Origin: an uncultured Janibacter sp.
GTDB taxonomy: Bacteria; Actinomycetota; Actinomycetes; Actinomycetales; Dermatophilaceae
Assembly (NCBI GenBank): GCA_964430615.1
Contig: CAYSGN010000005.1
Coordinates: 3,395-67,394 of the forward strand
Reading direction: 5' to 3'
DNA length: 64,000 nt
Position 1 is the stretch's first letter. Every line of letters begins with the position of its first letter. A program made the translations under genes and the position numbers. Of this stretch, positions 8,301 to 33,310 are shown in pieces. The notes under the pieces are model-generated. The model had not been told where the DNA came from. It did not search any database and saw only the letters and a program-made list of their open reading frames with translations.

Positions 8301-8309
8301 GCGCGTGGC

Positions 8310-10770: not shown

Positions 10771-10787
10771 GGTGAAACTCCCCTGTA

Positions 10788-10805
10788 CTTGAAGGATGAT
10801 TCAAG
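10788..10805. promoter_or_regulatory. Palindromic operator, copy 1
   Basis: CTTGAA-GGATGA-TTCAAG in the MFS/ligase divergent region. Confidence 0.75.
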
Positions 10806-10809
10806 TTAT

Positions 10810-10827
10810 CTTGAACCTGCATTCAAG
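10810..10827. promoter_or_regulatory. Palindromic operator, copy 2
   Basis: CTTGAA-CCTGCA-TTCAAG, 22 bp from copy 1. Confidence 0.75.
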
Positions 10828-10866
10828 TTGTGTCAAGGATCACCCATCCACCGGACGGAGACACCG

Positions 10867-12525
10867 ATGACGACCACCCCGACCACCGTCGCCGACCTCC
10901 CCTTCGCCGGGGCCGCCACCCACGGCAGCGCACCCGCGCAGGCCTCGCGTCGCGAGGACGGCTCCTGGCCCACGACCTCGTACGCCGAGATGGCGACGGC
11001 CGTCGACGAGCTGGCCCGTGGCCTCATCGCCCTCGACGTGCAGCCCGGCGACCGCGTGGCGCTGCTCGCCGACACCCGCGCCGAGTGGGCGCAGGTCGCC
11101 TACGCCGTGGCCGCGGCCGGCGGGGTCCTCGTCCCGATCTACGCGACGAACAGCCCGCAGGAGTGCCACTGGGTCCTGCAGGACTCCGGTGCGCGGGCCG
11201 TCGTCTGCGAGGACGCCGGCCAGGTCGCCAAGATCCGGGAGGTCACCGCCGACCTCGACGCCCTCGAGCACGTCCTGTCGATCGAGCCGGCGGAGGGCGT
11301 GGAGGACCTGGCCGCCCTGCGGGAGCGCGGTGCAGGCATCACCGAGGAGGCGCGGTCGGCGCGCACCGCCGAGGTCGCCCCGAACGACCTCGCGGTGATC
11401 ATCTACACCTCCGGCACGACCGGCCGGCCCAAGGGCTGCATGCTCACCCACGACAACCTCATGTCGTGCGCCCGTCAGACCGCCGAGCTCGACATCGTGA
11501 CGAGCGAGGACTCGACCTACCTCTTCCTGCCCCTGGCGCACGTCTACGCCCAGACGCAGAACTTCACGGCGCACGCGCTCGGCGGCTGCACCTACTACGC
11601 CTCCGAGGGGCCGGCCCAGGTGATGCGCGACCTCGCCGAGGTGCGGCCGACCTGCTTTCCCTCGGTGCCGCGCATCTACGAGAAGGTCTACGCAGCCTTC
11701 GCCGGGGCACCGCGCACCGAGGAGGTCCTCGCCCGGGCGAAGGGAGCCCTCGGCGGGCGCATCCGCGTCGCCATCAGCGGCGCCGCCCCCATCGCCGGGG
11801 AGATCCTCGAGTTCTTCCACGCAGCGGGCGTCCCCGTCTACGAGGGCTACGGGCTGAGCGAGTCCACCGCCTTCGGCACGGTCAACCTGCCGGACGCGAC
11901 CCGCATCGGCACCATCGGCCGGCCGATGCCCTTCGGCGAGGTCCGCATCGCCGAGGACGGCGAGATCCAGATGCGCGGGCCGCACATCTTCGCCGGCTAC
12001 TGGCACAACGACGAGGCGACGGCGCAGACCTTCACCGAGGACGGCTGGCTGCGCACCGGCGACCTCGGCGAGATCGACGCCGACGGCTACGTGCGGATCA
12101 CCGGCCGCACCAAGGACATCATCATCACCGCAGGCGGCAAGAACATCGCACCGGCCGCCTTCGAGAACGAGCTGCGGCAGTCCCCCTTCGTCTCGCACGT
12201 CGTCATGCACGGCGACCGGCGCCCCTACCCCGTCGCGCTCATCACGCTCGACCCCGACCACGTCGTGCCGTGGGCCCGCGAGCAGGGACTGCCCGAGGAC
12301 CTCGACGCGCTCCGCGAGGACCCGACGCTGCGCGCCCGCCTCCAGGAGGAGGTCGACGCGGCCAACAGCCACCTCGCCCGCGTCGAGCAGGTCAAGCGCT
12401 TCGCGGTCCTGCCGCGCGACTTCTCCCCCGAGACCGGCGAGCTCACCGTGACGCTCAAGCTGCGCCGCTCGGTCGTCGAGGACCGCTACCGGCAGGTCCT
12501 CGACGACCTCTACGCCCAGGAGTGA
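10867..12525 (+). CDS. Long-chain acyl-CoA synthetase (FadD15/ACSL-like)
   Basis: IYTSGTTGRPKGC, FLPLAHVY, EGYGLSES, LRTGDLG, GRTKDIIITAGGKNIAP; start MTTTP at 10867. Confidence 0.88.
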   Translation: MTTTPTTVADLPFAGAATHGSAPAQASRREDGSWPTTSYAEMATAVDELARGLIALDVQPGDRVALLADTRAEWAQVAYAVAAAGGVLVPIYATNSPQECHWVLQDSGARAVVCEDAGQVAKIREVTADLDALEHVLSIEPAEGVEDLAALRERGAGITEEARSARTAEVAPNDLAVIIYTSGTTGRPKGCMLTHDNLMSCARQTAELDIVTSEDSTYLFLPLAHVYAQTQNFTAHALGGCTYYASEGPAQVMRDLAEVRPTCFPSVPRIYEKVYAAFAGAPRTEEVLARAKGALGGRIRVAISGAAPIAGEILEFFHAAGVPVYEGYGLSESTAFGTVNLPDATRIGTIGRPMPFGEVRIAEDGEIQMRGPHIFAGYWHNDEATAQTFTEDGWLRTGDLGEIDADGYVRITGRTKDIIITAGGKNIAPAAFENELRQSPFVSHVVMHGDRRPYPVALITLDPDHVVPWAREQGLPEDLDALREDPTLRARLQEEVDAANSHLARVEQVKRFAVLPRDFSPETGELTVTLKLRRSVVEDRYRQVLDDLYAQE

Positions 12526-12700
12526 GTCACCCGCGGCCGACGGTGATCGGAAGTGACTCGCTGGTAGGACGACCACTACGGATGTCGAGTCCGGCGAGAT
12601 CCCCGATTTCCCGGGGTGCCGTGATCGGCGAGGGCGGCGACATGGTGTCGTACCCGCGAGTAGCTCACGGCGGACCGCAGGAGTGAGTCACCCGCGGCCG
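12517..12700. repeat. 23-bp direct repeat flanking a 138-bp insert
   Basis: CAGGAGTGAGTCACCCGCGGCCG at 12517-12539 and at 12678-12700. Confidence 0.9.
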
Positions 12701-14358
12701 GCGACCACCTCGTCGGCCCGGGCGAGCAGCTCGGCCTTGCGGATCTTGCCGGTGTCGGTGAGCGGGAAGGCCTCGACGACCTCGACGGTCGGCACCTTGT
12801 AGACCGCCATCCGCTCCCGGGCCCACTCCTCGAGCTCGGCGGCGGTGAGGCGAGCGCCGTCGCGGACGCTGACGAAGGCGACCGGACGCTGCCCCGTCTC
12901 GACGTCGTCCGCGGGGACGACCGCGACCGAGGCGATGTCGTCGTGACCGGCGAGCATCATCTCGACCTCGGCCGGGAAGACACTCATGCCGTTGACCTTG
13001 ATCATGTCCTTGGTCCGCGCCAGGTAGTGCAGGCACCCGTCGTCGTCGAGGTAGCCCGTGTCGCCGGTGTGCAGCCACCCGCCGCGCAGCTGCTCGGCGC
13101 TCGCCTGCGGGTTGCGCCAGTAGCCGGTCATGATCGAGGGGCTGCGCAGGAGGATCTCCCCCGCCGTGCCGAAGGGAACGGGGTCGCCGCTCTCGGGGTC
13201 GACGACGACCACGTCGGTACCGGGGACCGGCAGCCCGCAGAAGACCGGCTCGGTGAGCAGGTCGTGGTCGCCGTCGTGGAAGCCGTAGGGGACGACGTCG
13301 ACCGTGTGGCTCTCGGTCATGCCGAAGGAGCCCTCGCGCAGGATCGACCCGGCACCGACGACCTCGGCCCAGCGGTGGCGCACCTCGGGCGTGAGCTTGC
13401 GGATGAAGGACATCGCCATCGGCGCGGTGAAGGAGGTGAGGTCCCGCTCGGCCAGCCCGGGCAGGTCGAGGATGTCGAGATAGCTCTCGACCGTCGCGGC
13501 GGTCGTCGTCACGCGGTACCGCTCGACGAGGTCGACGACGGTGGCGGCGTCCCACCGCTCGAGGAGGACGGTCGTGCCACCCATGACGAGCGGGATGAGG
13601 ATGCCCAGGTCCTCCCCCGCGATCCAGAAGACGGGGATGAAGCACAGCGAGACGATGTGCGTGCCGTCGAAGCCGTTGGCCCCCGAGGCACTCACCGCCG
13701 TGTAGACCATGTGCCGCTGCGTGTGCTCGCAGCCCTTGGGCAGGCCGGTCGTCCCGCCCGTGTAGTTGAGCGCCGCGAGCGCGTCGAGGTCCCGGGCCGG
13801 TTCGACGAGCGGCTCGGCGGTCGTCGTGTCCGACCACCGCACGACCTCGACCCCCTCGACGGCAGGAAGAGGGTCCCCCTCATCTCCCAGCACGACGACC
13901 GTGCGCACGGCGGTCTCGGCGGCGGCATCGCAGAGACGTTGTGCCAGAGGGGCGCTCGTCACGACGACGGTCGTGCCGGAGTCCGCGAGCTCGTGGACGA
14001 GCTCCGCGTGGCGAAACATCGGGTTGACCGGGACGTGCACGCAGCCGGCGCGCAGCGTGCCGAGGAAGGCGAGGACGAACTCGGGCACGTTGCCCAGGTG
14101 GACGCCGACCCGCTCACCGGGGGCGACCCCCTTCGCCCGCAGCCACCCGGCCCACCGCGCATGGCGGTCGGCGAGCTCGCGGTAGGTGATCGTCACGTCG
14201 TCGTGGACGACGGCCGCGTCGATCGGGCGCTGCTGCGCCCACGCGTCGACGTACTCGGGCACGGTGAGACACCCGAGCGGGTGGATGACCTCGCGTGGGG
14301 TGTCGGCGGGGCGCACGCGCTCCTGTCGGCGGCGGATCTCCTGCAGGTGCTGCTCCAT
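12688..14358 (-). CDS. Acyl-CoA synthetase (AMP-binding)
   Basis: NYTGGTTGLPKG, FGMTES, LHTGDTG, RTKDMIK, TGKIRK. Confidence 0.88.
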   Translation of the reverse strand: MEQHLQEIRRRQERVRPADTPREVIHPLGCLTVPEYVDAWAQQRPIDAAVVHDDVTITYRELADRHARWAGWLRAKGVAPGERVGVHLGNVPEFVLAFLGTLRAGCVHVPVNPMFRHAELVHELADSGTTVVVTSAPLAQRLCDAAAETAVRTVVVLGDEGDPLPAVEGVEVVRWSDTTTAEPLVEPARDLDALAALNYTGGTTGLPKGCEHTQRHMVYTAVSASGANGFDGTHIVSLCFIPVFWIAGEDLGILIPLVMGGTTVLLERWDAATVVDLVERYRVTTTAATVESYLDILDLPGLAERDLTSFTAPMAMSFIRKLTPEVRHRWAEVVGAGSILREGSFGMTESHTVDVVPYGFHDGDHDLLTEPVFCGLPVPGTDVVVVDPESGDPVPFGTAGEILLRSPSIMTGYWRNPQASAEQLRGGWLHTGDTGYLDDDGCLHYLARTKDMIKVNGMSVFPAEVEMMLAGHDDIASVAVVPADDVETGQRPVAFVSVRDGARLTAAELEEWARERMAVYKVPTVEVVEAFPLTDTGKIRKAELLARADEVVAGRG

Positions 14359-14373
14359 GTGCGCTCCCTCGCG

Positions 14374-17300
14374 TCACCAGGTGTCGATGTAGCGGACCGG
14401 TCCCTCGTCGGAGACCGAGGTCGGCAGGGCGGTGAGGATCCACTGCCGGGTGTCGGCCGGGTCGATGACGTCGTCGAGCTCGACGACCGCGGCCGCGTTG
14501 ACCGCGCGCCCGCGCTCGTAGAGGTCGTCGAGCAGGCGCTGCTCGAGCTGCCGGCGCTCGGTGGGGTCGGCGACGGCCTCGAGCTCGCGGCGGTAGCCGA
14601 GGCGGACCGCACCCTCGAGCCCCATGCCGCCGACCTCGCCCATCGGCCACGCCACGGTCGCGGCCGGGCGGTGGAAGCTGCCGGCCGCCATCGCCTGCGC
14701 GCCGAGGCCGTAGGCCTTACGCAGCACGACGGTGATGATCGGCACCCGCAGGTGCGCCCCGATGACGAAGAGCCGGGCGAAGTGGCGCACCGTCGCGGTC
14801 CGCTCGTGGTCGGGGCCAACCATGAACCCCGGTGTGTCGCAGAGGGACACGACGGGCAGGCCGTGGGCGTCGCACAGCTGGAGGAAGCGCGCGAGCTTGT
14901 CGGCCGCCGGGGTGTCGATCGCGCCGCCGAGGTGGCGCGGGTTGTTGGCGACGAGGCCCATCGGGCGCCCCTCGATGCGCACGAGGGCCGTGACGACGCC
15001 CGGGGCGAATCCGGCGCGCAGCTCGAGCACGGAGTCCTCGTCGGCGAGCGCGTCGATCGCGGCGTGGACGTCGTAGGCGCGCACCCGGTTGGTCGGCACG
15101 ACGTGGCGCAGCGCGCGCTGGTCGGCCGCCGTCCACTCCTCGTGCGCCCCCTGGAAGTACCCGAGGTAGCGCTGCGCGACGGCGACCGCCTCGGCCTCGT
15201 CGTCGACGACGACGTCGACGACGCCGTTGCTGCCCTGCACCTCGATCGGGCCGACCTCCTCGGGGGCGAAGACGCCGAGGCCGCCCCCTTCGATCATCGC
15301 GGGGCCGCCCATGCCGATCGTCGAGTCGCGGGTGGCGATGACGACGTCGCAGCAGCCGAGGAGCGCGGCGTTGCCGGCGAAGCAGCGCCCGGCGGCGATG
15401 CCGATCGTCGGCACGAGCCCGCTGAGCCGGCCCATCGTCGCGAAGGTCGGGACGTCGAGGCCGCTCGCGACGGTCGTGTCGGTGTCGCCGGGGCGACCAC
15501 CGCCCCCTTCGGCGAAGAGGACGACGGGCAGGCGCTGCTGCTCGGCGATCTCGAGGATCCGGTCGGTCTTCTTGTGGTTGAGGTAGCCCTGGGTGCCCGC
15601 GAGGACCGTGTAGTCGTAGGCGAGGACGGCGCAGCGGGTGTCCTGCGCCGGCGCGGAGGTGATGCGCCCGATCCCGGTGACGATGCCGTCGGCCGGGGTG
15701 TGGGCGATGAGGTCCTCCTCGCTGCGGCGAGCGCGCTGCGCGGCGACGGCGAGGCCGCCGTACTCGACGAAGCTGCCCTCGTCGACGAGGTCGGCGATGT
15801 TGTCCCGCGCGGTGCGCTGCCCGCGTGCGTGGCGCTTGGCGACGGCCTCGGGACGCGCCTCGTCGAGGCGTCGGCGACGGCGCTCCTCGAGCCGGGTGAG
15901 GTCGGGACGCTCCGCGTCGAGGTCGGGGCCGTCGTCGAGCGCACCGACGGTGTCGCCGTCGGACGAAGGGAGCAGCCGCACGAGCAGATCGCCCGGCGAG
16001 GTCGTCTCGCCGGGTCGGACCGTGACGTCCGTGACGACCCCGCTGACGGGGGCGAGGACGAGGTGCTCCATCTTCATCGCCTCGACGACGACGAGCGGTG
16101 TCCCGGCGGCGACCTCGGCGCCCGCCTCGACGTCGACGGACAGGACGGTGCCGGCCATCTCGGCGAGGACCTCGCCGGTGGCCCCTTCGACCGTGTCGGC
16201 CGCGACTGCGAGACCGGCCTGCCCGATCCACCGGGTCGTCACCGCCCAGGTCGCGATGTCGTCGTGGGCGAGCAGCGCGCGCAGGAGCGGCAGGTTGGTC
16301 TCGACGCCGCCGATGGTGCACTCGGCGGCAGCCGCACGGGCCTTGCCGAGCGCCCCGGCGTGACCTGCCCGGCTGTGGACGACGACCTTGGCGACGAGCG
16401 AGTCGAAGGCGCCGTCGATGCGGGTACCCGTGACGAGGTGGGTGTCGACGCGGACGCCGGGTCCGGTGGGCAGGGCCAGCTCGGCGACGACGCCGTGGGC
16501 GGGCAGCGCCTCGCCGGAGCTGCCCGTGTGCTCGGCCGCGACCCGCAGCTCGACGGCCGCGTCGGTCACGGGTAGGGGCGTCGCGAGGCCGACGTCGGCG
16601 AGGGTGTCCCCCGCGGCGAGCCGCAGCTGGGTGAGGACGAGGTCGACGCCCGTGACCATCTCGGTCACCGGGTGCTCGACCTGCAGGCGGGGGTTGACCT
16701 CGATGAACCACCACCGCGTCGGGTCGTCGGCGTCGACGAGGAACTCGACGGTCGCCAGGCCTCGGTAGCCGCGCCCGGAGAGGAGGCGTACGGCGGCGTC
16801 GTGCAGGGCAGCGCGCACCTCGTCCGGCAGGTCGGGGGCCGGCGCGACCTCGACGACCTTCTGGAAGCGCCGCTGGAGCGTGCAGTCCCGCTCGCCGAGG
16901 TGGGTGACGCCCTGGCCGTCGGCGACGACCTGGACCTCGATGTGTCGTGCCCGCTCGACGTAGAGCTCGGCGAAGAGCTCACCGGAGCCGGAGCTGCGCT
17001 CGGCCTCGGAGCGGGCCCGCTCCCAGGCATCGGCGAGCGGCTCTCCGGCGGGCACCGCGCGCATGCCGCGCCCGCCACCACCGGAGGCCGCCTTGATCAT
17101 CACACCGCCGGGGAGCTGCTCCCGGGCGAAGGCCTGGGCCTCCTCCCGGCTCACCCCTGCGGGGGTCGCCGGCAGGACCGGGACCGCCGCCCCCTGCGCG
17201 GCGTCCCGGGCACTGCCCTTGTCGCCGAAGAGCTCGAGCAGCTCGGCGTCCGGTCCGACGAAGGTGATCCCGGCGTCGGCACAGGCCCGGGCGAGGACCG

Positions 17301-17562
17301 GGCTCTCGCTGAGGAAGCCGTAGCCGGGGTGGAGCAGGGTGCACCCGTGCTCCACGGCCCCGGCGACGAGGGCGGCGGCGTCGAGATAGGCCGCCGCCCC
17401 CTCACCGGGCAGCACGTGCACGGAGCTCGCCAGGCGAGCCGCGACGGAGTCCGCCTCCGCCCGCGTGACGGCCACGACGGCGTCGAGGCCGGCCTCACGG
17501 GCCGCCCGGACGACCCGGACGGCGATCTCCCCGCGGTTGGCGACGTAGACCGACTCCGTCAC
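14374..17562 (-). CDS. Single-chain acyl-CoA carboxylase (BC-BCCP-CT fusion, LCC type)
   Basis: ANRGEIA, HPGYGFLSE, IEVNPRLQVEH (BC); EAMKM biotinylation motif; AGTQG, GGGGRPGD, DTPGFMVG (CT); GTG 17562 with GGAGGGAG RBS. Confidence 0.9.
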   Translation of the reverse strand: MTESVYVANRGEIAVRVVRAAREAGLDAVVAVTRAEADSVAARLASSVHVLPGEGAAAYLDAAALVAGAVEHGCTLLHPGYGFLSESPVLARACADAGITFVGPDAELLELFGDKGSARDAAQGAAVPVLPATPAGVSREEAQAFAREQLPGGVMIKAASGGGGRGMRAVPAGEPLADAWERARSEAERSSGSGELFAELYVERARHIEVQVVADGQGVTHLGERDCTLQRRFQKVVEVAPAPDLPDEVRAALHDAAVRLLSGRGYRGLATVEFLVDADDPTRWWFIEVNPRLQVEHPVTEMVTGVDLVLTQLRLAAGDTLADVGLATPLPVTDAAVELRVAAEHTGSSGEALPAHGVVAELALPTGPGVRVDTHLVTGTRIDGAFDSLVAKVVVHSRAGHAGALGKARAAAAECTIGGVETNLPLLRALLAHDDIATWAVTTRWIGQAGLAVAADTVEGATGEVLAEMAGTVLSVDVEAGAEVAAGTPLVVVEAMKMEHLVLAPVSGVVTDVTVRPGETTSPGDLLVRLLPSSDGDTVGALDDGPDLDAERPDLTRLEERRRRRLDEARPEAVAKRHARGQRTARDNIADLVDEGSFVEYGGLAVAAQRARRSEEDLIAHTPADGIVTGIGRITSAPAQDTRCAVLAYDYTVLAGTQGYLNHKKTDRILEIAEQQRLPVVLFAEGGGGRPGDTDTTVASGLDVPTFATMGRLSGLVPTIGIAAGRCFAGNAALLGCCDVVIATRDSTIGMGGPAMIEGGGLGVFAPEEVGPIEVQGSNGVVDVVVDDEAEAVAVAQRYLGYFQGAHEEWTAADQRALRHVVPTNRVRAYDVHAAIDALADEDSVLELRAGFAPGVVTALVRIEGRPMGLVANNPRHLGGAIDTPAADKLARFLQLCDAHGLPVVSLCDTPGFMVGPDHERTATVRHFARLFVIGAHLRVPIITVVLRKAYGLGAQAMAAGSFHRPAATVAWPMGEVGGMGLEGAVRLGYRRELEAVADPTERRQLEQRLLDDLYERGRAVNAAAVVELDDVIDPADTRQWILTALPTSVSDEGPVRYIDTW

Positions 17563-17582
17563 GTGCGACTCCCTCCGTCGGC

Positions 17583-18785
17583 TCAGAAGATCTCGAAGAG
17601 ACCGGCAGCGCCCATGCCGCCGCCGACGCACATCGTCACGACGCCGTACTTCGCGCCGCGGCGACGCCCTTCGATGAGGACGTGGCCGGCCATGCGGGCG
17701 CCGCTCATGCCGTAGGGGTGGCCGACGGAGATCGCGCCGCCGTCGACGTTGAGCTTCTCCGGGTCGATGCCGAGCTGGTCGCGGCAGTAGAGCGTCTGGA
17801 CCGCGAAGGCCTCGTTGAGCTCCCACAGGTCGATGTCGTCGACGCTCAGGCCGTGCTGCTTGAGCAGCTTCGGCACGGCGAAGACGGGACCGATGCCCAT
17901 CTCGTCCGGCTCGCAGCCCGCGACGGCCATCCCGCGGAAGGCTCCGAGCGGGGTCAGGCCGCGCCGCGAGGCCTCGGCGGCCTCCATGACGACCGCGGCG
18001 GAGGCGCCGTCGGAGAGCTGCGAGGCGTTGCCGGCGGTGATCGAGAAGCCCTCGGTGCCGTCCTTGGCGAGGACCGGGTTGAGCTTGCCGAGGTCCTCGA
18101 TCGAGGTGCCTGGGCGGTTGCCCTCGTCGCGGTCGAGGGTCACCTCGCGGGAGGAGACCTCGCCGGTCGCCTTGTCCTTGACGAGCATCGTCGAGGGCAG
18201 CGGCACGATCTCGTCGTCGAAGGCCCCGGCCTCCTGCCCGGCGGCGGTGCGGCGCTGGGACTCGACGGAGTACTCGTCCTGCGCGTCACGCGAGATGCCG
18301 TAGCGCTGCGCGACGACCTCGGCGGTCTCGAGCATCGACATGTACGTCGCGGGGACGTGCTCGACGAGCCACGGGTCCTGGGAGCGGTAGGTGTTCATGT
18401 GCTCGTTCTGCACGAGCGAGATCGACTCGACGCCGCCACCGACGGCGACCTGCTGGCCGTCGAAGACGACCTGCTTGGAGGCGGTGGCGATGGCCATGAG
18501 GCCGCTCGCGCACTGGCGGTCGACGGACATGCCGGCGACGGTGACGGGCAGCCCGGCCCGCAGCGCGGCCTGCCGGCCGATGTTCATCGCGGTCGAGCCC
18601 TGCTGCATCGCGGCGCCGATGACGACGTCCTCGATCTCGGCGCCGTCGACGCCGGCACGCTCGACGGCGTGCCGCACGGCGTGGCCGATGAGCTCCTGGG
18701 CCTGGGTGTCGTTGAAGGCGCCGCGGTAGGCGCGGCCGATCGGGGTGCGAGCGGTGGAGACGATGACTGCTTCGCGCATGGTCAC
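17583..18785 (-). CDS. Acetyl-CoA C-acyltransferase (thiolase)
   Basis: RQCASG catalytic Cys, [22 protein letters not shown]. Confidence 0.93.
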
Positions 18786-18825
18786 TCCTGGTGGTCGAAG
18801 GGGGTGTGGGGTCGAGTCTGTCGGG

Positions 18826-22278: not shown

Positions 22279-22294
22279 GTCTCGCTCCCTTCGG

Positions 22295-25397: not shown

Positions 25398-25434
25398 GAG
25401 AGCTCCTGTGGTCTCGACTGCCGATGTGCGCTTC

Positions 25435-25470
25435 ACCGTACTTGAATCCGGCTTCAAGTTCAACTAGGTT
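25435..25470. promoter_or_regulatory. Overlapping divergent promoters containing operator copy 3 (25441-25458)
   Basis: Operator CTTGAA-TCCGGC-TTCAAG; minus promoter TTGAAC-N17-TACGGT; plus promoter TTGAAT-N17-TAGGTT. Confidence 0.75.
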
Positions 25471-25504
25471 TCCGGTCATCCGCACGTGATCGAAGGAGCT
25501 CACC

Positions 25505-25975
25505 ATGACCCAGACCGCACAGCAGCGCCCGACCTCCGTCCAGGACCTCAAGGACCTCGTCGGCGTCGAGCTCGGGCCCACCGAGTGGCACGTCGTCGAC
25601 CAGGCGAAGATCGACGCCTTCGCCGACCTCACGGGTGACCACCAGTGGATCCACGTCGACCCGCAGCGGGCGGCGGACTCCCCCTTCGGCTCGACGATCG
25701 CGCACGGTCTCTACTCGCTCTCGCGCACGCCGGCCTTCCTCGAGGAGCTCATGGCCTTCGACGGCTTCGCGCACAGCCTCAACTACGGCTACGACAAGGT
25801 GCGCTTCATCCACCCGCTGCCCGTGGACTCGCGGATCCGTCTGCGCGCCACCCTCACCTCCGTCGAGGAGACCGCGCCCGGCGCGGTCAAGGTCGTGACG
25901 ACGCTGACCGTCGAGGCCGACGGCATCGACAAGCCGATCCTCGTCGCCGAGTCGATCGGCCGCTTCAGCTCCTGA
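25505..25975 (+). CDS. MaoC-family (R)-specific enoyl-CoA hydratase
   Basis: FADLTGDHQWIHVD, TIAHG, NYGYDKVRF. Confidence 0.88.
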   Translation: MTQTAQQRPTSVQDLKDLVGVELGPTEWHVVDQAKIDAFADLTGDHQWIHVDPQRAADSPFGSTIAHGLYSLSRTPAFLEELMAFDGFAHSLNYGYDKVRFIHPLPVDSRIRLRATLTSVEETAPGAVKVVTTLTVEADGIDKPILVAESIGRFSS

Positions 25976-25983
25976 CGTGAAGC

Positions 25984-26091: not shown

Positions 26092-26099
26092 GAGTCGTG

Positions 26100-26600
26100 T
26101 CAGCGGCGGACGCCGATGGCGCCGGAGAGCGGCAGCTGCCAGGGCAGCGCCCGGTGCTCGGCGACGAGCGCGTCGATCCGCTCCGCAAGGTCGGGCGGGA
26201 AGGGGGCGGAGCGCCGGGTCGCGAGGTCGACGTGCCCCTCGAGCACCTCGAGCGTGTTGGCGATCCGCCCCGTCGTGCGGTTGACGAGGATCGAGATGCC
26301 GTGGAAGACCTTGTCCCCACGGTCGAGCCACCGCACGTGCGCGGAGACCTCCTCACCGACGTGCACCTCGGCGAGGAAGCGCAGGTGCTGCTCCATGCTG
26401 AAGACGCTCAGCCCGCGCCCGCTCCGGTAGGCGTCGTCGAGCCCCATCTGCTCGAGCGCGGCCCCTGCGGCCCGGATGTGGAAGCCGTAGAAGTGGGCGA
26501 CGTTGACGTGCCCGTTGCCGTCCTCCCACTCGGGGCCGGCGACGGTGCGCACGGCCGCCGGGATCTGGTCGACCTCCTCGACGGTGACGGACGCGCTCAC
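26100..26600 (-). CDS. Thioesterase-family protein
   Basis: EWEDGNGHVNV hot-dog thioesterase motif; GTGA overlap with the upstream gene. Confidence 0.8.
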   Translation of the reverse strand: MSASVTVEEVDQIPAAVRTVAGPEWEDGNGHVNVAHFYGFHIRAAGAALEQMGLDDAYRSGRGLSVFSMEQHLRFLAEVHVGEEVSAHVRWLDRGDKVFHGISILVNRTTGRIANTLEVLEGHVDLATRRSAPFPPDLAERIDALVAEHRALPWQLPLSGAIGVRR

Positions 26601-27550
26601 GGGACGAGGACGACCTTGCCGGTCACCGTGCGCCCCTCGAGCGAGGCGATCGCCGTCGCGGCGTCCTCGAGCGGGTGCGTGGCACCGACGACCGGTCGCA
26701 GGGCTCCGCTGCGCAGGTGCGGGAGCATCGCCTCCCACTCACGGGCGATGTGACCCGGCTTGGACAGCGCGTAGGCGCCCCAGCCGACGCCGACGACCGA
26801 GACGTTGTTGAGCAGCAGCCGGTTGACCTTGACCTCGGGGATCGAGCCGGCGGTGAAGCCGATGACGAGCAGGCGACCGTGCTCGCGCAGCGAGCGCAGC
26901 GAGTCGGTGAAGCGGTCGCCGCCGACGGGGTCGACGACGACGTCGACCTGCGCCTTGCCGACCGTCTCGAGGAAGCCGTCCGCGAGGACCACCTCGTCGG
27001 CACCCGCGGCCCGGGCGATCTCCCCCTTCGCCTCGGTCGAGACGACACCGATGACGCGGCCGGCACCGAAGGCCTTGGCCATCTGGATGGCCGCGGTCCC
27101 GATGCCGCCGGCGGCCCCGTGGACGAGGACGGTCTCACCCTCGGCCAGGTGGCCGCGCTCGACGAGCGCGAAGTAGACGGTCGCGTAGTTGAAGGTGAAG
27201 GAGGCCGCCTCCTCGAAGCCGACCTCGTCGGGCAGCGCGAAGGTGAGGTCGGGGCGGGCGAGCGCCTTCTCGGCGAAGCCGCCCAGGAGCGTGAGCGCGG
27301 CGACCCGATCACCCACGGACAGCCCGCTGCCCTCGGGGGCGGCGGTGACGACGCCGGCGACCTCGGCCCCCGGGACGAAGGGGAGGTCGGGCTTGATCTG
27401 GTAGAGCCCCCGGGTCTGGAGCAGCTCGGGGAAGGCGACCCCGGCCGCCTTGACGTCGATGGCGACGAACCGGTCGTCGCTCGGGTCGGGCAGGTCGACG
27501 ACCTCGACCGCCTCGGGCCCGTCGAGGGAGGAGATGTGGATGGCGCGCAT
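26597..27550 (-). CDS. NADPH:quinone oxidoreductase-family MDR
   Basis: PFVPGAEVAG, VLVHGAAGGIG, DPVGG, GRLLVIGF. Confidence 0.88.
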   Translation of the reverse strand: MRAIHISSLDGPEAVEVVDLPDPSDDRFVAIDVKAAGVAFPELLQTRGLYQIKPDLPFVPGAEVAGVVTAAPEGSGLSVGDRVAALTLLGGFAEKALARPDLTFALPDEVGFEEAASFTFNYATVYFALVERGHLAEGETVLVHGAAGGIGTAAIQMAKAFGAGRVIGVVSTEAKGEIARAAGADEVVLADGFLETVGKAQVDVVVDPVGGDRFTDSLRSLREHGRLLVIGFTAGSIPEVKVNRLLLNNVSVVGVGWGAYALSKPGHIAREWEAMLPHLRSGALRPVVGATHPLEDAATAIASLEGRTVTGKVVLVP

Positions 27551-27570
27551 GAGGGGGTCCCTTCGTGACG

Positions 27571-28572
27571 TCAGAGCTGGAGGAGGAGCTTGCCCGTGTT
27601 GACCCCGTCGAAGAGGCCGAGCAGGGCGTCGGGGAAGGCAGCGACGCCACCCTCGAGGACGGTCTCGGTCGCGACGAAGCGGCCGTCGGCGATGAGCTCG
27701 CTGATGCCGGCGATGGCCTCGGGGTAGCGGTCGGCGTAGTCCATGACGAGGAAACCTTGCATGCTCGCGCGGAAGACGAGCAGGGCCATGTAGCGACGCG
27801 GCCCCTCGGCGAGGGTCTCGTCGTTGTACGTCGAGATCGCGCCGCAGATGGCGATGCGGGCACCGTGGGCGAGGTTGGCCAGGGCGGCGTCGAGCAGCTC
27901 GCCGCCGACGTTGTCGAAGTAGACGTCGACCCCGTCGGGGGCCGCGGCGCGGACCTGGCGCAGCAGGTCGCCCTCGCGCCGGTCGATGACCTCGTCGAGG
28001 CCGAGCTCGCGCAGCCATTCGACCTTGTCCGGGCCGCCCGCGACGCCGATGACCCGGCAGCCCTTGGCCTTGGCGAGCTGGGCGACGGTGCTGCCGACGG
28101 CTCCGGCCGCGGCGGAGACGAGCACGGTGTCGCCCGGCTGCGCCCGACCGACGTCCTCGAGGCCGAACCACGCGGTCATGCCGGGCATGCCGAGCGCGCC
28201 CAGCCAGGTGCTCATCGGGGCGACGTCGAGGTCGAGGCGGGTGACTCCCTTCCCGTCGGAGATCGCGTACTCGCGCACCCCGAAGGTGCCGCTCACGACG
28301 TCGCCGACGGCGAAGTCGTCGTGCTGCGAGGCGATGACCGTGCCGGCGCCGAAGGCGCGCATGACGGCCCCGATCTTCACCGGCGGCAGGTAGGAGCGCA
28401 CGTCGTTGAGCCAGCCGCGCATCGCCGGGTCGAGGGAGATCTGCTGCATCTCGACGAGGAACTCTCCGGGCCCCGGGTCCGGGACCTCGCTCGTGGCGAG
28501 CTCCCAGGTGCTCGCGTCGGGGCGGCCCTGGGGGCGGGCGGCGAGGCGGATCTCCTGCGAGGTCCGGGTCAT
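27571..28572 (-). CDS. NADP-dependent oxidoreductase (PGR/LTB4DH-like alkenal reductase)
   Basis: SLDPAMRGW, LGMPGMTAWFGL, VSAAAGAVGS, YFDNVGG, NTGKL. Confidence 0.88.
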   Translation of the reverse strand: MTRTSQEIRLAARPQGRPDASTWELATSEVPDPGPGEFLVEMQQISLDPAMRGWLNDVRSYLPPVKIGAVMRAFGAGTVIASQHDDFAVGDVVSGTFGVREYAISDGKGVTRLDLDVAPMSTWLGALGMPGMTAWFGLEDVGRAQPGDTVLVSAAAGAVGSTVAQLAKAKGCRVIGVAGGPDKVEWLRELGLDEVIDRREGDLLRQVRAAAPDGVDVYFDNVGGELLDAALANLAHGARIAICGAISTYNDETLAEGPRRYMALLVFRASMQGFLVMDYADRYPEAIAGISELIADGRFVATETVLEGGVAAFPDALLGLFDGVNTGKLLLQL

Positions 28573-28619
28573 GGGGACTCCTGAGGTCGGGCGAGCGGGT
28601 CGTCGCCACCCTCCCACAA

Positions 28620-28671
28620 CGTGAATCGAGGTTCAACTACTCTTGAACCGAGATTCATGTCCGGCTACGGT
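28620..28671. promoter_or_regulatory. Operator copies 4 and 5 plus plus-strand promoter
   Basis: CGTGAA-TCGAGG-TTCAAC (28620) and CTTGAA-CCGAGA-TTCATG (28642), 22 bp apart; TTGAAC-N17-TACGGT. Confidence 0.7.
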
Positions 28672-28707
28672 CGGGGGCGGACCTCCCCTTCGACACCAAG
28701 GACAGCC

Positions 28708-29493
28708 ATGGACTTCTCCGCCCTGTTTTCCCTCGACGGTCGCGTCGCCCTCGTCACCGGAGGCTCCCGCGGCATCGGCCGGATGATCACCGAGGGCCTC
28801 CTCGCCCAGGGGGCGCGGGTCTACATCACCGCCCGCAAGGAGGACGCCTGCCGCGCGACGGCCGCTGAGCTGTCGCAGCAGTACGGCGAAGGGCGGTGCG
28901 TCGCCCTCCCTTGTGACGTCTCGACGACCGAGGGCATCGCGAGCCTGCTCGCCGCCTTCGGCGAGCACGAGGACCACCTCGACGTCCTCGTCAACAACGC
29001 CGGCGCGGCGTGGGGCGCGCCCTTCGACGAGTTCCCCGAGAGCGGCTGGGACAAGGTGATGGACCTCAACGTCAAGGCGCCCTTCTTCCTCACCCAGGCG
29101 GCCAAGGGCCTGCTCTTCGCCGGCCGCGAGCGCAGCGGGCACCTCGCCAAGGTCATCAACATCGCCTCGATCGACGGCCTCTCGCTCAACCCGGGGCAGA
29201 CCTACAGCTACCACGCGAGCAAGGCGGGGGTCGTCCACCTCACCAAGCGGATGTCGGTCGAGCTGGCACCGCAGGGCATCGTCGTCAGCGCCATCGCGCC
29301 CGGCGCCTTTGCCTCGACGATGAACAAGGACGCCCGCGACCACGCCGACGAGATCTCCGCGCAGATCCCCTCCGGCCGGATCGGCCGCCCCGAGGACATG
29401 GCAGCCGCCGCGGTCTACCTCGCCTCGGACGCCGGTGACTACGTCGTCGGCAGCACGCTCACCGTCGACGGTGGGGTCAACATCGCGCGTTGA
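28708..29493 (+). CDS. SDR-family oxidoreductase
   Basis: TGGSRGIG, NNAG, YSYHASK, SAIAPG; ATG at 28708. Confidence 0.88.
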   Translation: MDFSALFSLDGRVALVTGGSRGIGRMITEGLLAQGARVYITARKEDACRATAAELSQQYGEGRCVALPCDVSTTEGIASLLAAFGEHEDHLDVLVNNAGAAWGAPFDEFPESGWDKVMDLNVKAPFFLTQAAKGLLFAGRERSGHLAKVINIASIDGLSLNPGQTYSYHASKAGVVHLTKRMSVELAPQGIVVSAIAPGAFASTMNKDARDHADEISAQIPSGRIGRPEDMAAAAVYLASDAGDYVVGSTLTVDGGVNIAR

Positions 29494-29509
29494 CGGCACC
29501 CCCGGCCCC

Positions 29510-29559
29510 CGGGTCGATGTATCCAGGTGCGTCCGACGTCACCGAGCAACATCGACCCG
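29510..29559. terminator. Hairpin between convergent SDR and TetR genes
   Basis: CGGGTCGATGT/ACATCGACCCG 11-bp perfect stem. Confidence 0.55.
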
Positions 29560-29572
29560 TAGGGGCGGTCGC

Positions 29573-30253
29573 TCAGTCGGCGCGCAGCTCGGGGCTGGTG
29601 AGCCCGAGCGCGTTGGTCCACAGGCGCGTGGCGGTGTCGACGAGCCCATCGACGTCGTCGACAGCGCCACCGCCGAAGGACTCGTAGGCCAGGCGGGCGA
29701 CCATGCCGGAGAGGGCCATCGCGGCCATCGTCGCGTCGACGCCCCGGTCGGCGAGGCCCCGCTCCTGGAGATCGGCGATCGCCCGGGCGTTGCGGTGGAC
29801 GAAGGCGAGGCTGCGTGCGTTGCGCACCTCGCGGAAGCGCGGGTCGACGGCGGCGACCTGTTGGAGCAGCAGGTTGAGCCGCGCATTGCGCCGGTAGGCC
29901 TCGAAGTAGGCCCGGTTGCTCGCCGCGATGATCGCGACCGGGTCGTCGGTCGCCTCCATGCGGTTGGTGCCCGGGTGGAGCATCTCGCTCTGCGCCTCGT
30001 GGAGGACCGCGGCGAAGACCTCGTCCTTGCTGTCGAACCACGTGTAGAAGCTGCCGATCGAGCACTTCGCCTCGGCGGCGATGTCGACCAGGCGCGAGTC
30101 GACGTAGCCGTCCCGCTCGAAGACGGTGCGGGCGGCGGCGATGAGCGCGTCGCGGGTGCGCTTGCCGCGCGGCGTCTGGGGCTGGGTCCCCAGCTTCGCC
30201 GCATCGACGAGGTCGGGGACCTCGCTGGCGGCGGTGTCGCTCTCGCTCGGCAT
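29573..30253 (-). CDS. TetR/AcrR family transcriptional regulator
   Basis: RTRDALIAAARTVFERDGY...DIAAEAKCSIGSFYTWFDSKDEVF HTH; possible leaderless start (TAGGGT-N7-ATG). Confidence 0.92.
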   Translation of the reverse strand: MPSESDTAASEVPDLVDAAKLGTQPQTPRGKRTRDALIAAARTVFERDGYVDSRLVDIAAEAKCSIGSFYTWFDSKDEVFAAVLHEAQSEMLHPGTNRMEATDDPVAIIAASNRAYFEAYRRNARLNLLLQQVAAVDPRFREVRNARSLAFVHRNARAIADLQERGLADRGVDATMAAMALSGMVARLAYESFGGGAVDDVDGLVDTATRLWTNALGLTSPELRAD

Positions 30254-30263
30254 GGCGGCCACC

Positions 30264-31301
30264 CTAACCCGCCTCGTCGAGCACGACGTGCGCACAGGTG
30301 ACGAGCTCGTCGACGGCCGCGGCCGGGATGACCCCGGCCGCGGTGAGGTTGCGTGGGTCGTCCTGCTGACGCCGACGCACCCCCTCGAGGATGATCGCGA
30401 GCTTCCACAGCCCCAGCCCGTGCCAGAAGGTGACCGCCGAGACGTCCCGACCGGAGACGGCGGCGTAGTGCTCGACGAGCTCGGACCGGGTCGCGAAACC
30501 CGGTACCGACGAGGCGTCGAAGCGCATCGTCGGCGGGTCGCCGGCCATCGGCCAGTACGCGAGCAGGGTCCCGAGGTCGGCCAGGGGGTCGCCCAGCGTC
30601 GACAGCTCCCAGTCGAGGATCGCGCGCACCGTGGCCTCGTGCGGGTCGATGATGACATTGCGCAGGTGGCTGTCCCCGTGGACGAGCGCCACCTCGCCGG
30701 GCCCGGGGTCGCTGGCGGAGAGCCGCCTGGTGAGCCGCTCGAGGTCCGGCAGGTCACGGGTCCGCGAGAGGTCCCACTGACGCGACCACCTGCGCAGCTG
30801 CCGTGCGCCGTAGGGCTTGTGGCTGGCGAGGTCGGCGAGCCCGGCGTCGTCGAGGTCGACCGCGTGGATCCGGGCCAGGGTGTCGACGAGCGAGAGGCCG
30901 GCGCGGTGCCGAGCGGCCGGGGGGAGTCGCTCGGCGTCCGCGCGGCTGTCGAGGACCTCCCCGTCGACGAAGGAGACCGCGAGCAGGGGCACGTCGCTCA
31001 CGGTGGGGTCATCGCAGAGCCCGTGCACGACGGGGAGCGGGACATCCGTGCCCTGGAGGGCGGAGAGGATCCGGTGCTCACGCGCCACGTCGTGGGCGGA
31101 GGCGAGCAGCTCGCCCAGGGGTGGACGCCGCAGGACCAGGCGCTCCCCCTTCGCGTCCGTCGCCAGATACGTGAGGTTGGACTGCCCGAGGCCGACCCGG
31201 GCGAAGGACAGGGGCGGCTGCATGCCGATCCCCAACCCCTCGATCCATCCGGTCACGGCCTCGGCGTCCAGGCCCTCGGTGACGTCGCTCTCGTGGCTCA
31301 T
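30264..31301 (-). CDS. APH-family phosphotransferase (ACAD10/11 kinase-like)
   Basis: GQSNLTY, RRPPLG..SAHDVAREHRIL, HGDSHLRNV, LDWELSTLGDPLADLG. Confidence 0.88.
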   Translation of the reverse strand: MSHESDVTEGLDAEAVTGWIEGLGIGMQPPLSFARVGLGQSNLTYLATDAKGERLVLRRPPLGELLASAHDVAREHRILSALQGTDVPLPVVHGLCDDPTVSDVPLLAVSFVDGEVLDSRADAERLPPAARHRAGLSLVDTLARIHAVDLDDAGLADLASHKPYGARQLRRWSRQWDLSRTRDLPDLERLTRRLSASDPGPGEVALVHGDSHLRNVIIDPHEATVRAILDWELSTLGDPLADLGTLLAYWPMAGDPPTMRFDASSVPGFATRSELVEHYAAVSGRDVSAVTFWHGLGLWKLAIILEGVRRRQQDDPRNLTAAGVIPAAAVDELVTCAHVVLDEAG

Positions 31302-31326
31302 GGCGCTCCTCCCGGGCGTCCGTGCA

Positions 31327-32550
31327 CTACTTCGTCCGGCCCCACTCCGGCGCGCGGCGGCGGTACTCGCGGCGCGCGATGGTCCTCTTGTGCACCTCGT
31401 CGGGGCCATCGGCGAGGCGCAGGGTGCGCATGTGCGCATACCACTGGGCCAGCGGGAAGTCGTCGCTCACCCCACCGCCACCGTGCACCTGGATCGCGCG
31501 GTCGATGACCTTGAGCGCCACCTGCGGGGCAGCCACCTTGATCGCTGCGATCTCGGTCCGGGCGACCTTGTTACCGACCGTGTCCATCATGTGCGCCGTC
31601 TTGAGGGTGAGCAGCCGGGCCATCTCGATCTCGATGCGCGCCTCGGCGACCCAGTCCATGATGTTCGCCCGGTCGGCGACCGGCTCGCCGAAGGTGACCC
31701 GGGACTGCGCCCGGTCGATCATCAGGTCCAGGGCCCGCTCGGCGACGCCGATGGCGCGCATGCAGTGGTGGATGCGGCCGGGCCCCAGCCGGGCCTGGCT
31801 GATCATGAAGCCGTCGCCCTCCCCCGCGAGGAGCGCCTCCTTGGGGACCCGGACGTCCTCGAGGACGACCTCCGCGTGGCCCTCGCGGTCCTGGTAGCCG
31901 AAGACGGGCAGCCCGCGCTCGATCCTCACCCCCGGCGTGTCGAGCGGGACGACCATCATCGACTGCTGACGGTGGGTCGGTGCCTCCGGGTCGGTCTTGC
32001 CCATGACGATGAGCACCTTGCAGTTCTTGTGCAGGGCGTTCGAGGTCCACCACTTGCGACCGTTGATGACGTACTCGTCCCCGTCGCGGACCATCGAGGT
32101 CTCGATCTTCGTCGCGTCCGAGCTCGCGACGGCCGGCTCGGTCATGGCGAAGGCGGAGCGGATCTCCCCCGCGAGGAGGGGCTCCAGCCAGGTCCTCTTG
32201 TGCTCCTCGGTCCCGAAGAGGGTGAGCACCTCCATGTTGCCCGTGTCCGGCGCACTGCAGTTGATGGACTCGGGCGCGATCTCGATGCTGCGGCCGGTGA
32301 TCTCCGCCAGGTGCGCGTACTCGAGGTTGGTCAGGCCCGGGCCCCACTCGGGGTGGGGGTGGAAGAGGTTCCACAGCCCGCGGCCGCGGGCCTCGGCCTT
32401 GAGGTCCTCGAGGACCTGCGGGTGGTGGTTGGGGTCGCCGGACTCGCGCATCTGCCGGCGGTAGACGCTCTCCGCCGGGTAGACGTGCTCGTCCATGAAG
32501 GCGAGCAGGCGGTCGCGGTAGTCCTGGCCGCGGTCACTGAGGTCGAACAT
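31327..32550 (-). CDS. Acyl-CoA dehydrogenase (ACAD10/11-like subfamily)
   Basis: [46 protein letters not shown]. Confidence 0.9.
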
Positions 32551-33247
32551 CGTGGTGGTCCTTCTCCTGGCGGGTGGTGGGTGTGGTCGTGGACGAAGGG
32601 AGACCCAGCGCCTCACGGATGCGCGGGATGCTCTCCTGCGCGCTGCGATGGAAGATGCCCCGGATGCCGAGGCGTGCCGCCCCGACGAGGTTGTGCTCGA
32701 GGTCGTCGACGAGCACGCAGGCCTCGGGCCGGACCCCGAGGCGCTCGCAGGCGATCCGGTAGATCCCGCGAGAGGGCTTGCGGACACCGACCTGCCCCGA
32801 GACGACCGTGACGTCGACGAGCTCGTCGAGGTCGATACGGGCGTAGCAGTCGCGCCCGAGGGAGTTGGAGACCAGAGCGACGGGGACCCCGGCGGCCCGG
32901 ACCTCGCGCACGAGGTCGATCATCGCCCGGTCCGGGTGCAGGTGGCTGCCGAGCCGGGCGAGCAGCCCTCGTGCCTCGACGTGCGCCCCGACCTCGGAGA
33001 GTGCCGCGGCGAAGACGTCCTCGAAGCCCTCGTCGTCCAGCCGACCGAGCTCGTGCTCGACGAGCGCCGTCCGAGCAGCCTCGTGGGTCGCCAGCACGCG
33101 CAGGGCCTGGTCCGGGTCGAGCCCGGTCCCGGCCCCGAGCGCCCGGAAGGCCTCTGCCAGCGGGAGGGTGAGCACTCCCCCGAAGTCGACGAGGAGGGCA
33201 TGGGCGCGCGAGCCGGTGCCGAGGACGGGTGTGGGCGGTGACGACAC
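32534..33247 (-). CDS. HAD-superfamily phosphatase (subfamily IA)
   Basis: LVDFGGVL motif I, LVSNS, RKP, VDDL..N; GTG 33247 with GAGGAGG RBS. Confidence 0.85.
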
Positions 33248-33281
33248 GGGCGCCTCCTCATGGTTCGCGGGCACGACCACA

Positions 33282-33310
33282 GGTATACTTGAATTCAGAT
33301 TCATATACAA
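33282..33310 (-). promoter_or_regulatory. Promoter of HAD-ACAD-kinase(-TetR) operon with operator copy 6 (33288-33305)
   Basis: TTGTAT-N17-TATACC on the minus strand; operator CTTGAA-TTCAGA-TTCATA overlaps the spacer. Confidence 0.7.

Follow-up and report, generated by a model that had tools for sequence, protein, structure and literature searches.

The palindrome TTGAA-N6-TTCAA occurs six times in a stretch of 64,000 nucleotides from an uncultured Janibacter sp. (GenBank assembly GCA_964430615.1, contig CAYSGN010000005.1, positions 3,395 to 67,394 of the forward strand; hereafter the window), and the six copies are very probably operators of the TetR-family regulator encoded on the minus strand at 29573..30262. 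They lie in an acyl-CoA catabolic cluster of 24 genes between 6654 and 35488 (about 29 kb), arranged in eight transcription units. Between these limits there are exactly four divergent intergenic regions, which separate MFS and ligase, SDR and MaoC, QOR and SDR, and HAD and MFS genes, respectively. The motif is present in each of them, so the original prediction, according to which it marks every divergent promoter of the cluster, is correct.

When the window was searched for TTGAA-N6-TTCAA (TTGAANNNNNNTTCAA), three exact matches were obtained, at 10789, 10811 and 25442, and three more with one mismatch allowed (28621, 28643 and 33289), six in total, compared with a chance expectation of 0.00 exact matches and 0.03 with one mismatch in 100 dinucleotide shuffles of the window. 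With the flanking C/G included, these are the copies that had been predicted at 10788, 10810, 25441, 28620, 28642 and 33288, and the 22-bp spacing claimed for both tandem pairs is likewise right (10789 to 10811 and 28621 to 28643). Read outwards from the six cores, the motif turns out to be a 20-bp inverted repeat, ACTTGAA-N6-TTCAAGT. The centres of the TTGAA half-sites are 11 bp apart, that is, one helical turn, which fits one TetR homodimer per site. Since the one-mismatch 16-mer pattern is too loose in lower-GC relatives (control counts up to 26), scans with a position weight matrix (PWM) and shuffles were used for the comparisons. The PWM was symmetrised and built from the six window sites, and the Janibacter assembly scanned comprises 3.17 Mb in 274 contigs with a completeness of 99.97%. 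The six cluster sites score 27-37 bits and everything elsewhere at most 17.7 bits, so the genome-wide scatter that had been named as grounds for giving up the idea was not observed. The runner-up, C51:10633 (17.7 bits), is located between DoxX-like and flavin-reductase-like genes, and was rejected as a member of the regulon because just one half-site fits. The one-mismatch 16-mer pattern gives three further matches in the same genome, equal to the control count, and one of them is a different palindrome, TTGAACACCTGTGCAA. In three other Janibacter genomes, the excess of the motif over the control falls within the cluster; their out-of-cluster 16-mer matches are few, several being TTGAACAnnTGTKCAA, a different palindrome, and none of them has the extended ACTTGAA...TTCAAGT form. 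With no further site in the genome and the excess of the three relatives inside the cluster, the proposal of a self-contained regulon gains strong support.

Could the six copies be a mobile or repetitive element, of the repetitive extragenic palindrome (REP) type or resembling a miniature inverted-repeat transposable element (MITE), or merely chance AT-rich palindromes? The intergenic DNA is indeed relatively AT-rich in this genome of 72.5% GC, but chance accounts for 0.03 sites, the positions are syntenic and stable in the genus and beyond, and no copies are found elsewhere in the genome. In addition, the sites are not copies of one element, because the spacers between their half-sites differ. 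The chance that this explanation holds is therefore virtually negligible. A second recurring palindrome, TTGAACAnnTGTGCAA / TTGAACACGCGTTCAA, was noticed outside the cluster in several Janibacter genomes (G000 C19:5594; G016:C1:3152380; G012:C1:50234, 2317887 and 2132388; G011:C2:369149, C7:819933 and C3:58745), and a different regulator probably uses it as its operator.

Because the window is 72.5% G+C, gene calling relied on the GC bias of third codon positions (GC3), and the genes were named after Pfam. The proposed repressor, a TetR-family protein (hereafter TetR; 226-229 amino acids, with 30253 as an alternative start), is the single transcription factor among all genes called from about 1.2 to 43 kb of the window; two small open reading frames at 3955-4670 have no Pfam match. 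TetR has only one match in the genome at E<=1e-20, and no close paralogue. The tetR gene is the last one in the HAD-ACAD-APH-TetR operon and follows APH after no more than about 10 bp. The other three genes of this operon (30264..33247, minus strand) encode by Pfam an APH-type kinase (30264-31301), an acyl-CoA dehydrogenase (ACAD) designated ACADd (31327-32550) and a HAD phosphatase (32534-33247). Since the operon starts at site 6, binding of TetR there would make it autoregulated. Across 65 homologues, with identities as low as 55%, the helix-turn-helix (HTH) of TetR (residues 57-81) hardly varies, which matches the near-invariant TTGA...TCAA core of the motif.

Does the motif follow the regulator across the Actinobacteria? 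For this comparison, 80 loci from species-representative genomes were retrieved by alignment of TetR homologues alone, and 75 of them are outside Janibacter, from Dietzia, Marihabitans, Gordonia, Mycobacterium, Mycolicibacter, Rhodococcus, Nocardia, Antrihabitans, Streptomyces, Amycolatopsis, Prauserella, Nocardioides, Aeromicrobium, Nesterenkonia, Brevibacterium and Conexibacter. At these 75 loci TetR is 54-75% identical, and at least one site of at least 18 bits was found at 71 of them (at least 15 genera). Altogether, 135 sites of at least 18 bits are present in 1.4 Mb of non-Janibacter loci, compared with 0.6 in shuffled copies. The genes downstream of these sites are SDR1 (29), thiolase (28), ACADd (8) and TetR itself (7), and sites also occur ahead of CoA ligase, MaoC, QOR, SDR3 and ECH (enoyl-CoA hydratase) genes, that is, the same families as in the window. 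In one genus (G024), only TetR-APH-ACAD-SDR is left, with a site directly upstream of that operon. The module of ACADd and APH accompanies TetR and the motif in other genera, and is the most widely conserved target of the regulon.

Loci and genomes lacking the regulator were considered as well. In three TetR-less genera of the same family (G021-G023), the counts of the motif and of the reversed pattern are 0/1, 16/12 and 19/11, respectively, which were judged equal to the control. In a sample of 200 genomes of the class, all four genomes with an ACADd homologue at least 74% identical have a TetR orthologue within a few kb, and their loci carry sites of 17-40 bits, the range also observed for the seven TetR-bearing loci of that comparison. 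At 14 APH-ACAD loci without a TetR orthologue, the motif is absent, the best score being at most 8.5 bits anywhere in 4-13 kb.

Within Janibacter, a TetR orthologue is present in 20/20 genomes (73-84% identity), and about 33 kb around its gene was mapped for genes and PWM sites in nine of them. The motif occurs at the same four intergenic regions in the nine, with two exceptions: G006 has no MFS gene and no clear site at that region, and G001 has only a weak site (17.8 bits) at the QOR2/SDR3 region. Five further Janibacter loci (L041-L045) agree with this pattern. When the intergenic regions are aligned, the palindromes stand out as conserved cores, the remainder of each spacer having diverged. 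Phylogenetic footprinting, which had been put forward as a check, thus comes out in favour of the palindromes both within the genus and at the 71 of 75 loci beyond it. The left arm of the cluster is less constant: the ligase and cyclase genes (6654-9266, with the ligase at 6654-8300) are missing from most other Janibacter species, and lig2 (10867-12525) is present in one (G016) of the nine other genomes compared. Since these genes are missing in most species, the left arm can be regarded as a variable, accessory part of the regulon.

Some peculiarities of individual loci were recorded. In G006 (L023/L024), an insertion of about 3.6 kb lies between the orthologues of TetR and APH and splits the regulator from its usual operon. 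An extra site (17-28 bits) is found around or beyond the ECH gene in G016 (region 32027), G017 (region 32968) and G001 (region 30568); the window has CoxG and molybdenum-hydroxylase genes there, and no counterpart of at least 16 bits. In Dietzia sp. E1 (L046; P0041, P0044), a member of the Mycobacteriales, TetR is 83-84% identical to that of Janibacter, as between Janibacter species, and the cluster of SDR3, QOR2-QOR1-TE, MaoC and SDR2-SDR1-ACAD is syntenic and has the same sites; this likeness suggests a recent horizontal transfer of the whole regulon between the two orders. At L071, L086, L110 and L136/L137 (Rhodococcus, Nocardia, Aeromicrobium), two or three TetR paralogues are adjacent or a few kb apart, each of which adjoins motif-bearing operons, and they may reflect sub-functionalisation of the regulon.

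It could be argued that another regulator, encoded elsewhere and either global or pathway-specific, binds the palindrome, and that the cluster TetR targets something else. The link between protein and site does rest on comparison, and similar-composition palindromes (TTGAACAnnTGTGCAA) elsewhere in Janibacter must serve other regulators. However, the motif is confined to the cluster, it was positive at 71 of the 75 loci that had been selected by TetR, and it is absent where TetR is absent. In minimal loci, moreover, the site-controlled operon shows no regulator gene besides that of TetR, whose HTH is conserved in step with the TTGA/TCAA core. Consequently, only a slim chance is left to this explanation, and the assignment of the motif to the cluster TetR, as originally predicted, is strongly favoured by two groups of observations: within the cluster, its being the only regulator, without close paralogue and last in a site-controlled operon, and across genomes, the presence of the motif at TetR-selected loci and its absence at the 14 TetR-less APH-ACAD loci.

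The position of each site relative to the putative promoters was then considered; the promoter assignments are consistent with the hexamers conserved in the alignments. Site 1 (10787..10806, ACTTGAAGGATGATTCAAGT; exact core, 35.9 bits) adjoins the MFS gene and spans the predicted transcription start region of the MFS-cyclase-ligase promoter, and it is retained in all Janibacter genomes having the MFS gene. Site 2 (10809..10828, TCTTGAACCTGCATTCAAGT; exact core, 34.8 bits) lies 22 bp away from site 1. On the minus strand, it fills the 17 bp that separate a -35 TTGACA (10836 to 10831) from a -10-like CAAGAT (10813 to 10808). The GTGTCAAGG block, which reads TTGACA on the minus strand, is kept in all Janibacter alignments, and site 2 itself is lost in some species. 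The two sites serve the unit of an MFS transporter, a putative cyclase (PF04199) and a CoA ligase (6654..10770, minus strand), and divergent from the MFS gene is the CoA ligase gene lig2 (10867..12525, plus strand), for which there is no clear promoter.

Site 3 (25440..25459, ACTTGAATCCGGCTTCAAGT; exact core, 37.2 bits) is common to two overlapping divergent promoters. The one on the plus strand, ahead of the MaoC-type hydratase gene (25505..25975, plus strand), would consist of TTGAAT (25442-47), in which the left half-site is the -35, and TAGGTT (25465-70) after 17 bp. The one on the minus strand, ahead of the 13-kb operon running from SDR2 to a ligase (12688..25397, minus strand), would consist of TTGAAC (25463 to 25458), 17 bp and TACGGT (25440 to 25435). 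The block TACTTGAA..TTCAxGTTCAAyTAG, together with TANNNT hexamers on both strands, is kept in 10/10 Janibacter genomes.

Sites 4 (28619..28638, ACGTGAATCGAGGTTCAACT; one mismatch, 31.0 bits) and 5 (28641..28660, TCTTGAACCGAGATTCATGT; one mismatch, 27.1 bits), 22 bp apart, form the tandem pair between the unit of QOR2 (enone-reductase-like), QOR1 and a 4HBT thioesterase (26100..28572, minus strand) and SDR3 (28708..29493, plus strand). Site 4 is the QOR2-proximal one and is kept in Janibacter. The left half of site 5, TTGAAC (28643-48), is the putative -35 of the SDR3 promoter, followed after 17 bp by TACGGT (28666-71), a -10-like hexamer conserved genus-wide as TAC(G/C/T)GT. The tandem pair ahead of QOR2 is common to Janibacter, Dietzia, Marihabitans and Nocardioides.

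Site 6 (33287..33306, ACTTGAATTCAGATTCATAT; one mismatch, 35.9 bits) fills the spacer of the putative HAD-ACAD-APH-TetR promoter on the minus strand, that is, TTGTAT (33310 to 33305), 17 bp and TATACC (33287 to 33282). On the plus strand, a conserved TATACT (33284-89), with site 6 directly downstream, faces the genes for the MFS2 transporter and enoyl-CoA hydratase (33330..35488, plus strand). The sequence GTATACTTGAAyTCnGATTCAnATnCAAG of this region is kept in 10/10 Janibacter genomes, and the same layout of TTGAAC, operator and TATACA is also found ahead of the orthologous SDR-ACAD-APH operon in Streptomyces and other genera. When 87 sites were oriented by their downstream gene, a composite was obtained that consists of TTGAAC (exact in 52/87), the palindrome core occupying 17 bp, and a TA-initial hexamer (TATAAC, TATACA, TATAAA, TACGGT) starting at the last two positions of the palindrome.

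Such an arrangement raises the question of whether the motif is a promoter element, namely two divergent TTGAA-type -35 boxes or an element of an alternative sigma factor, that merely looks palindromic. TTGAA resembles the -35 consensus TTGACA, the half-site is a plausible -35 in two regions, and an additional TTGAAC hexamer abuts most sites. Against this, 31 sites are located between co-directional genes and so face one gene only, and both halves at the fixed N6 are conserved there (right half TTGAA in 28/31, left half TTGAC or TTGAA in 20/31); therefore, the motif is not merely two divergent -35 boxes, and that version of the explanation is ruled out. Moreover, the right half (TTCAA) falls inside the spacer, where promoters need no sequence, and the motif vanishes along with the TetR gene. 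The tandem copies point the same way, since their spacing is 22 or 23 bp in 19/19 cases found, and never 18-21 or at least 24 bp. A promoter element is accordingly a very improbable account of the motif.

The predicted structure of TetR was also examined. Its N-terminus matches PF00440 (TetR_N, residues 40-86, 36.8 bits vs. a cut-off of 24), and its C-terminus matches PF21313 (EthR_C, 35.3 bits vs. a cut-off of 27). The AlphaFold2 model has nine helices in a TetR fold, with a predicted local distance difference test (pLDDT) score of 88.5. A structure search with this model gave 235 matches in the PDB at E<=0.001, the top 50 of which are all TetR-family proteins. The nearest is EthR, with template modelling (TM) scores of 0.72/0.85 and an identity of just 22-23%, so the EthR_C membership describes the domain type and not orthology. 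The next-nearest structures are FasR with C20-CoA and the FadR proteins of Thermus, Sulfolobus and Bacillus with acyl-CoAs (16-23% identity). A sequence search of the PDB for a TetR orthologue found none, the best E being 4e-8, with generic TetR matches, and TetR does not belong to the ScbR / gamma-butyrolactone receptor family NF041196, for which it scores 57.5 bits vs. a cut-off of 150.

Several observations weigh against the reading of the six palindromes as TetR operators embedded in promoters. Since the six sites were themselves used to build the PWM, its scores within this genome are partly circular, although the cross-genus matches are not. The TetR-less APH-ACAD loci hold more distant homologues, with ACADs 63-73% identical, most of which are closer to ACADc of the cluster than to ACADd. 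Consequently, they are an imperfect control for the case of the same targets without the regulator, and what the comparison demonstrates is the joint presence or absence of the regulator, the motif and a particular enzyme lineage. As for the ligand, the closest structure is EthR, which is not an acyl-CoA sensor, and none of the nearest folds is more than distantly identical (16-23%). A strict scan for the sigma-70 consensus found no promoter in any of the four divergent regions, and many of the conserved -10-like hexamers (TATAAC, TATACA, TATACC) do not end in the T that is usually invariant. These bases might thus be flanks of the operator, and the promoter assignment may be wrong. The claims that the site fills the 17-bp spacer at 25441 and 33288, and that its TTGAA half doubles as the -35 box at 25442 and 28643, are consistent with the conserved hexamers, and the promoters themselves are putative.

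With this proviso, repression by occlusion of the promoters is the likely mode of action, as judged from the placement of the sites. Without inducer, TetR dimers on the sites would exclude RNA polymerase from all eight units and 24 genes, that is, MFS-cyclase-ligase, the divergent ligase, the 13-kb operon from SDR through the carboxylase to the ligase, MaoC, QOR2-QOR1-thioesterase, SDR3, HAD-ACAD-APH-TetR and MFS2-ECH, so that TetR would repress its own operon as well. In two of the regions, two dimers would bind 22 bp apart, probably cooperatively; since 22-23 bp amounts to two helical turns, they would be on the same face of the helix. A substrate or intermediate of the pathway would then enter the C-terminal pocket and free the repressor from the DNA.

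Alternatively, TetR might bind the sites as an activator or dual regulator, by ligand-dependent recruitment, and not as a simple repressor. The sites do overlap weak, non-consensus promoters, and a few TetR-family proteins activate transcription, FasR of Mycobacterium tuberculosis being described as an activator. However, the sites are located in the -35/-10 spacer, at the optimal 17 bp, or over the predicted start, where RNA polymerase would be blocked. Regulators of catabolic clusters in the TetR family are mostly repressors, and AccR, a TetR-family regulator of catabolic genes, is one. We would thus give activation a small chance, and simple repression is preferred.

The original prediction also proposed that the repressor is released by an acyl-CoA. 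By analogy with FadR and FasR this is plausible, though we would stop short of calling it probable. The likeliest ligand would be an acyl-CoA (4-oxo-, 4-hydroxy- or branched) or the matching free acid. In helices 6-7 of TetR, there is an unusual run of invariant arginines (R147, R150, R157 and R168), which is a hint, and only a hint, of a phosphorylated or CoA ligand.

How does the present system compare with known ones? A 5-N6-5 inverted repeat is an established operator layout for the actinobacterial TetR proteins AccR, McbR and AmtR. AccR of Streptomyces avermitilis represses accD1A1-hmgL-fadE4, echA8, echA9 and fadE2 through a 16-nt palindrome, GTTAA-N6-TTAAC, in their promoter regions (PMC10933834). 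It resembles the repressor proposed here in being an actinobacterial TetR protein that acts on genes for acyl-CoA carboxylase, acyl-CoA dehydrogenase and enoyl-CoA hydratase. However, its half-site is GTTAA, compared with TTGAA/TTGAC...TTCAA here and in the Streptomyces orthologues, and its regulon is of the short-chain type (leucine / methylcrotonyl-CoA), with a two-subunit carboxylase and hmgL. The present regulon has a single-chain carboxylase, a module of APH kinase and ACAD, enone reductases and transporters, and Pfam shows no HMG-CoA lyase in the cluster. Neither the GTTAA-N6-TTAAC operator nor the accD1A1-hmgL-fadE4 regulon expected of an AccR orthologue was found, and a separate orthologue of the present TetR, accompanied by the TTGAC/TTCAA motif, exists in Streptomyces. 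Therefore, AccR is a distinct regulator, as judged by half-site, regulon and this separate orthologue. McbR (TAGAC-N6-GTCTA) and AmtR (CTAT-N6-ATAG) of Corynebacterium glutamicum are TetR-family proteins with inverted repeats spaced by 6 bp, which place one HTH per major groove (PMC2723105). Unlike the present TetR, they regulate sulphur and nitrogen metabolism globally, through many dispersed sites, whereas the present regulon is local and has another half-site. FadR (Thermus, Bacillus, Sulfolobus), FasR (M. tuberculosis) and EthR share with it the fold (TM 0.6-0.75 by query, up to 0.85 by target), the EthR_C domain type and the control of lipid-metabolic genes, with acyl-CoA ligands for FadR and FasR; however, they are only 16-23% identical and have other operators, and ligand specificity is not transferable at such a distance. 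No description of this operator or regulator was found in the open-access literature, and such absence is not proof.

A second kind of likeness concerns the regulated enzymes and not the regulator. In the lva pathway of Pseudomonas putida, levulinyl-CoA is reduced, LvaA phosphorylates the 4-hydroxyacyl-CoA and the ACAD LvaC eliminates the phosphate, and mammalian ACAD10 and ACAD11 feed 4-hydroxy acids into beta-oxidation (PMC12440821, PMC11342911). The HAD, ACAD and APH genes of the operon at 30264-33247 correspond to the same three domains as in ACAD10 (PMC12440821). The core of the regulon (CoA ligase, SDR, APH-type kinase and ACAD) consists of the enzyme families of LvaE/D/A/C, at the family level only. 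LvaR, the regulator of the lva operon, is not known to belong to the TetR family.

The cluster as a whole contains four AMP-forming CoA ligases, two MFS transporters, a PF04199 cyclase, a thiolase, four acyl-CoA dehydrogenases, three SDRs, a MaoC hydratase, an enoyl-CoA hydratase, a thioesterase, two zinc-independent quinone/enone reductases, an APH-type kinase, a HAD hydrolase, one TetR-family regulator and a 1062-aa single-chain BC-BCCP-CT carboxylase. The last is encoded at 14374-17562 on the minus strand, within the nine-gene operon controlled by site 3, which comprises SDR2, SDR1, a CoA ligase, three ACADs, the thiolase, the carboxylase and another CoA ligase. The genes of this operon overlap or are separated by at most 40 bp, and their order is syntenic in the genus. 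For the APH kinase, the cyclase and TetR, no NCBIfam family scored above its cut-off. QOR2 (27571-28572, ADH_N_2 type) is closest to NADPH-dependent curcumin reductase (348 bits) and also matches leukotriene-B4 12-hydroxydehydrogenase / 15-oxoprostaglandin 13-reductase (209 bits), both below the cut-off, which points to an enone or alkenal reductase fitting an oxidised-lipid substrate. The start of MFS2 is either GTG at 33390 or, by alignment with relatives (window 33320-33392), an in-frame ATC at 33330. The MFS2 genes of relatives start with GTG or ATG about 5-6 nt past a GAGG Shine-Dalgarno sequence. The ATC would be a non-canonical start of a rare kind, and is also implied for three other species of Janibacter.

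Which pathway could be under this control? Among the targets, SDR, ACAD and APH kinase are conserved most widely, together with CoA ligase and, in Janibacter, the HAD hydrolase, and the SDR-ACAD-(SDR)-APH module recurs across the Actinobacteria (L050, L052, L053, L080, L139 and other loci). By analogy, this module suggests a pathway of the lva type for 4-hydroxy/4-oxo acids, and the single-chain carboxylase with the set of thiolase, ACAD and hydratase would handle a branched or otherwise blocked chain. Taken further, and only tentatively, TetR and TTGAA-N6-TTCAA may constitute an undescribed class-wide regulon (in Janibacter, Dietzia, Gordonia, Mycobacterium, Rhodococcus, Nocardia, Streptomyces, Aeromicrobium, Nesterenkonia, Brevibacterium and others) for the catabolism of 4-oxo-/4-hydroxy-type fatty acids, either oxidised or lactone-derived. 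Its core would be a split equivalent of ACAD10 (kinase and ACAD, with or without HAD) with enone reductases and a single-chain long-chain acyl-CoA carboxylase, and its inducer a 4-hydroxy- or 4-phospho-acyl-CoA or a precursor.

That a catabolic cluster has a TetR repressor and a palindromic operator is textbook knowledge. What the pair of operator and TetR adds is that it marks which 24 genes act together here, and likewise their homologues in many Actinobacteria, such as Streptomyces and Mycobacterium. The regulon unites three sets whose bacterial roles are poorly defined, namely the ACAD10/11-like module, the single-chain carboxylase and the PTGR1-like enone reductases, and the operator provides a handle for finding the substrate of the pathway via its inducer. 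The compact promoter-operator cassette may also serve as an inducible system in high-GC Gram-positive bacteria. If the class-wide regulon is real, the orphan carboxylase and the bacterial ACAD10-like module would gain a physiological context and a ready-made inducible switch.

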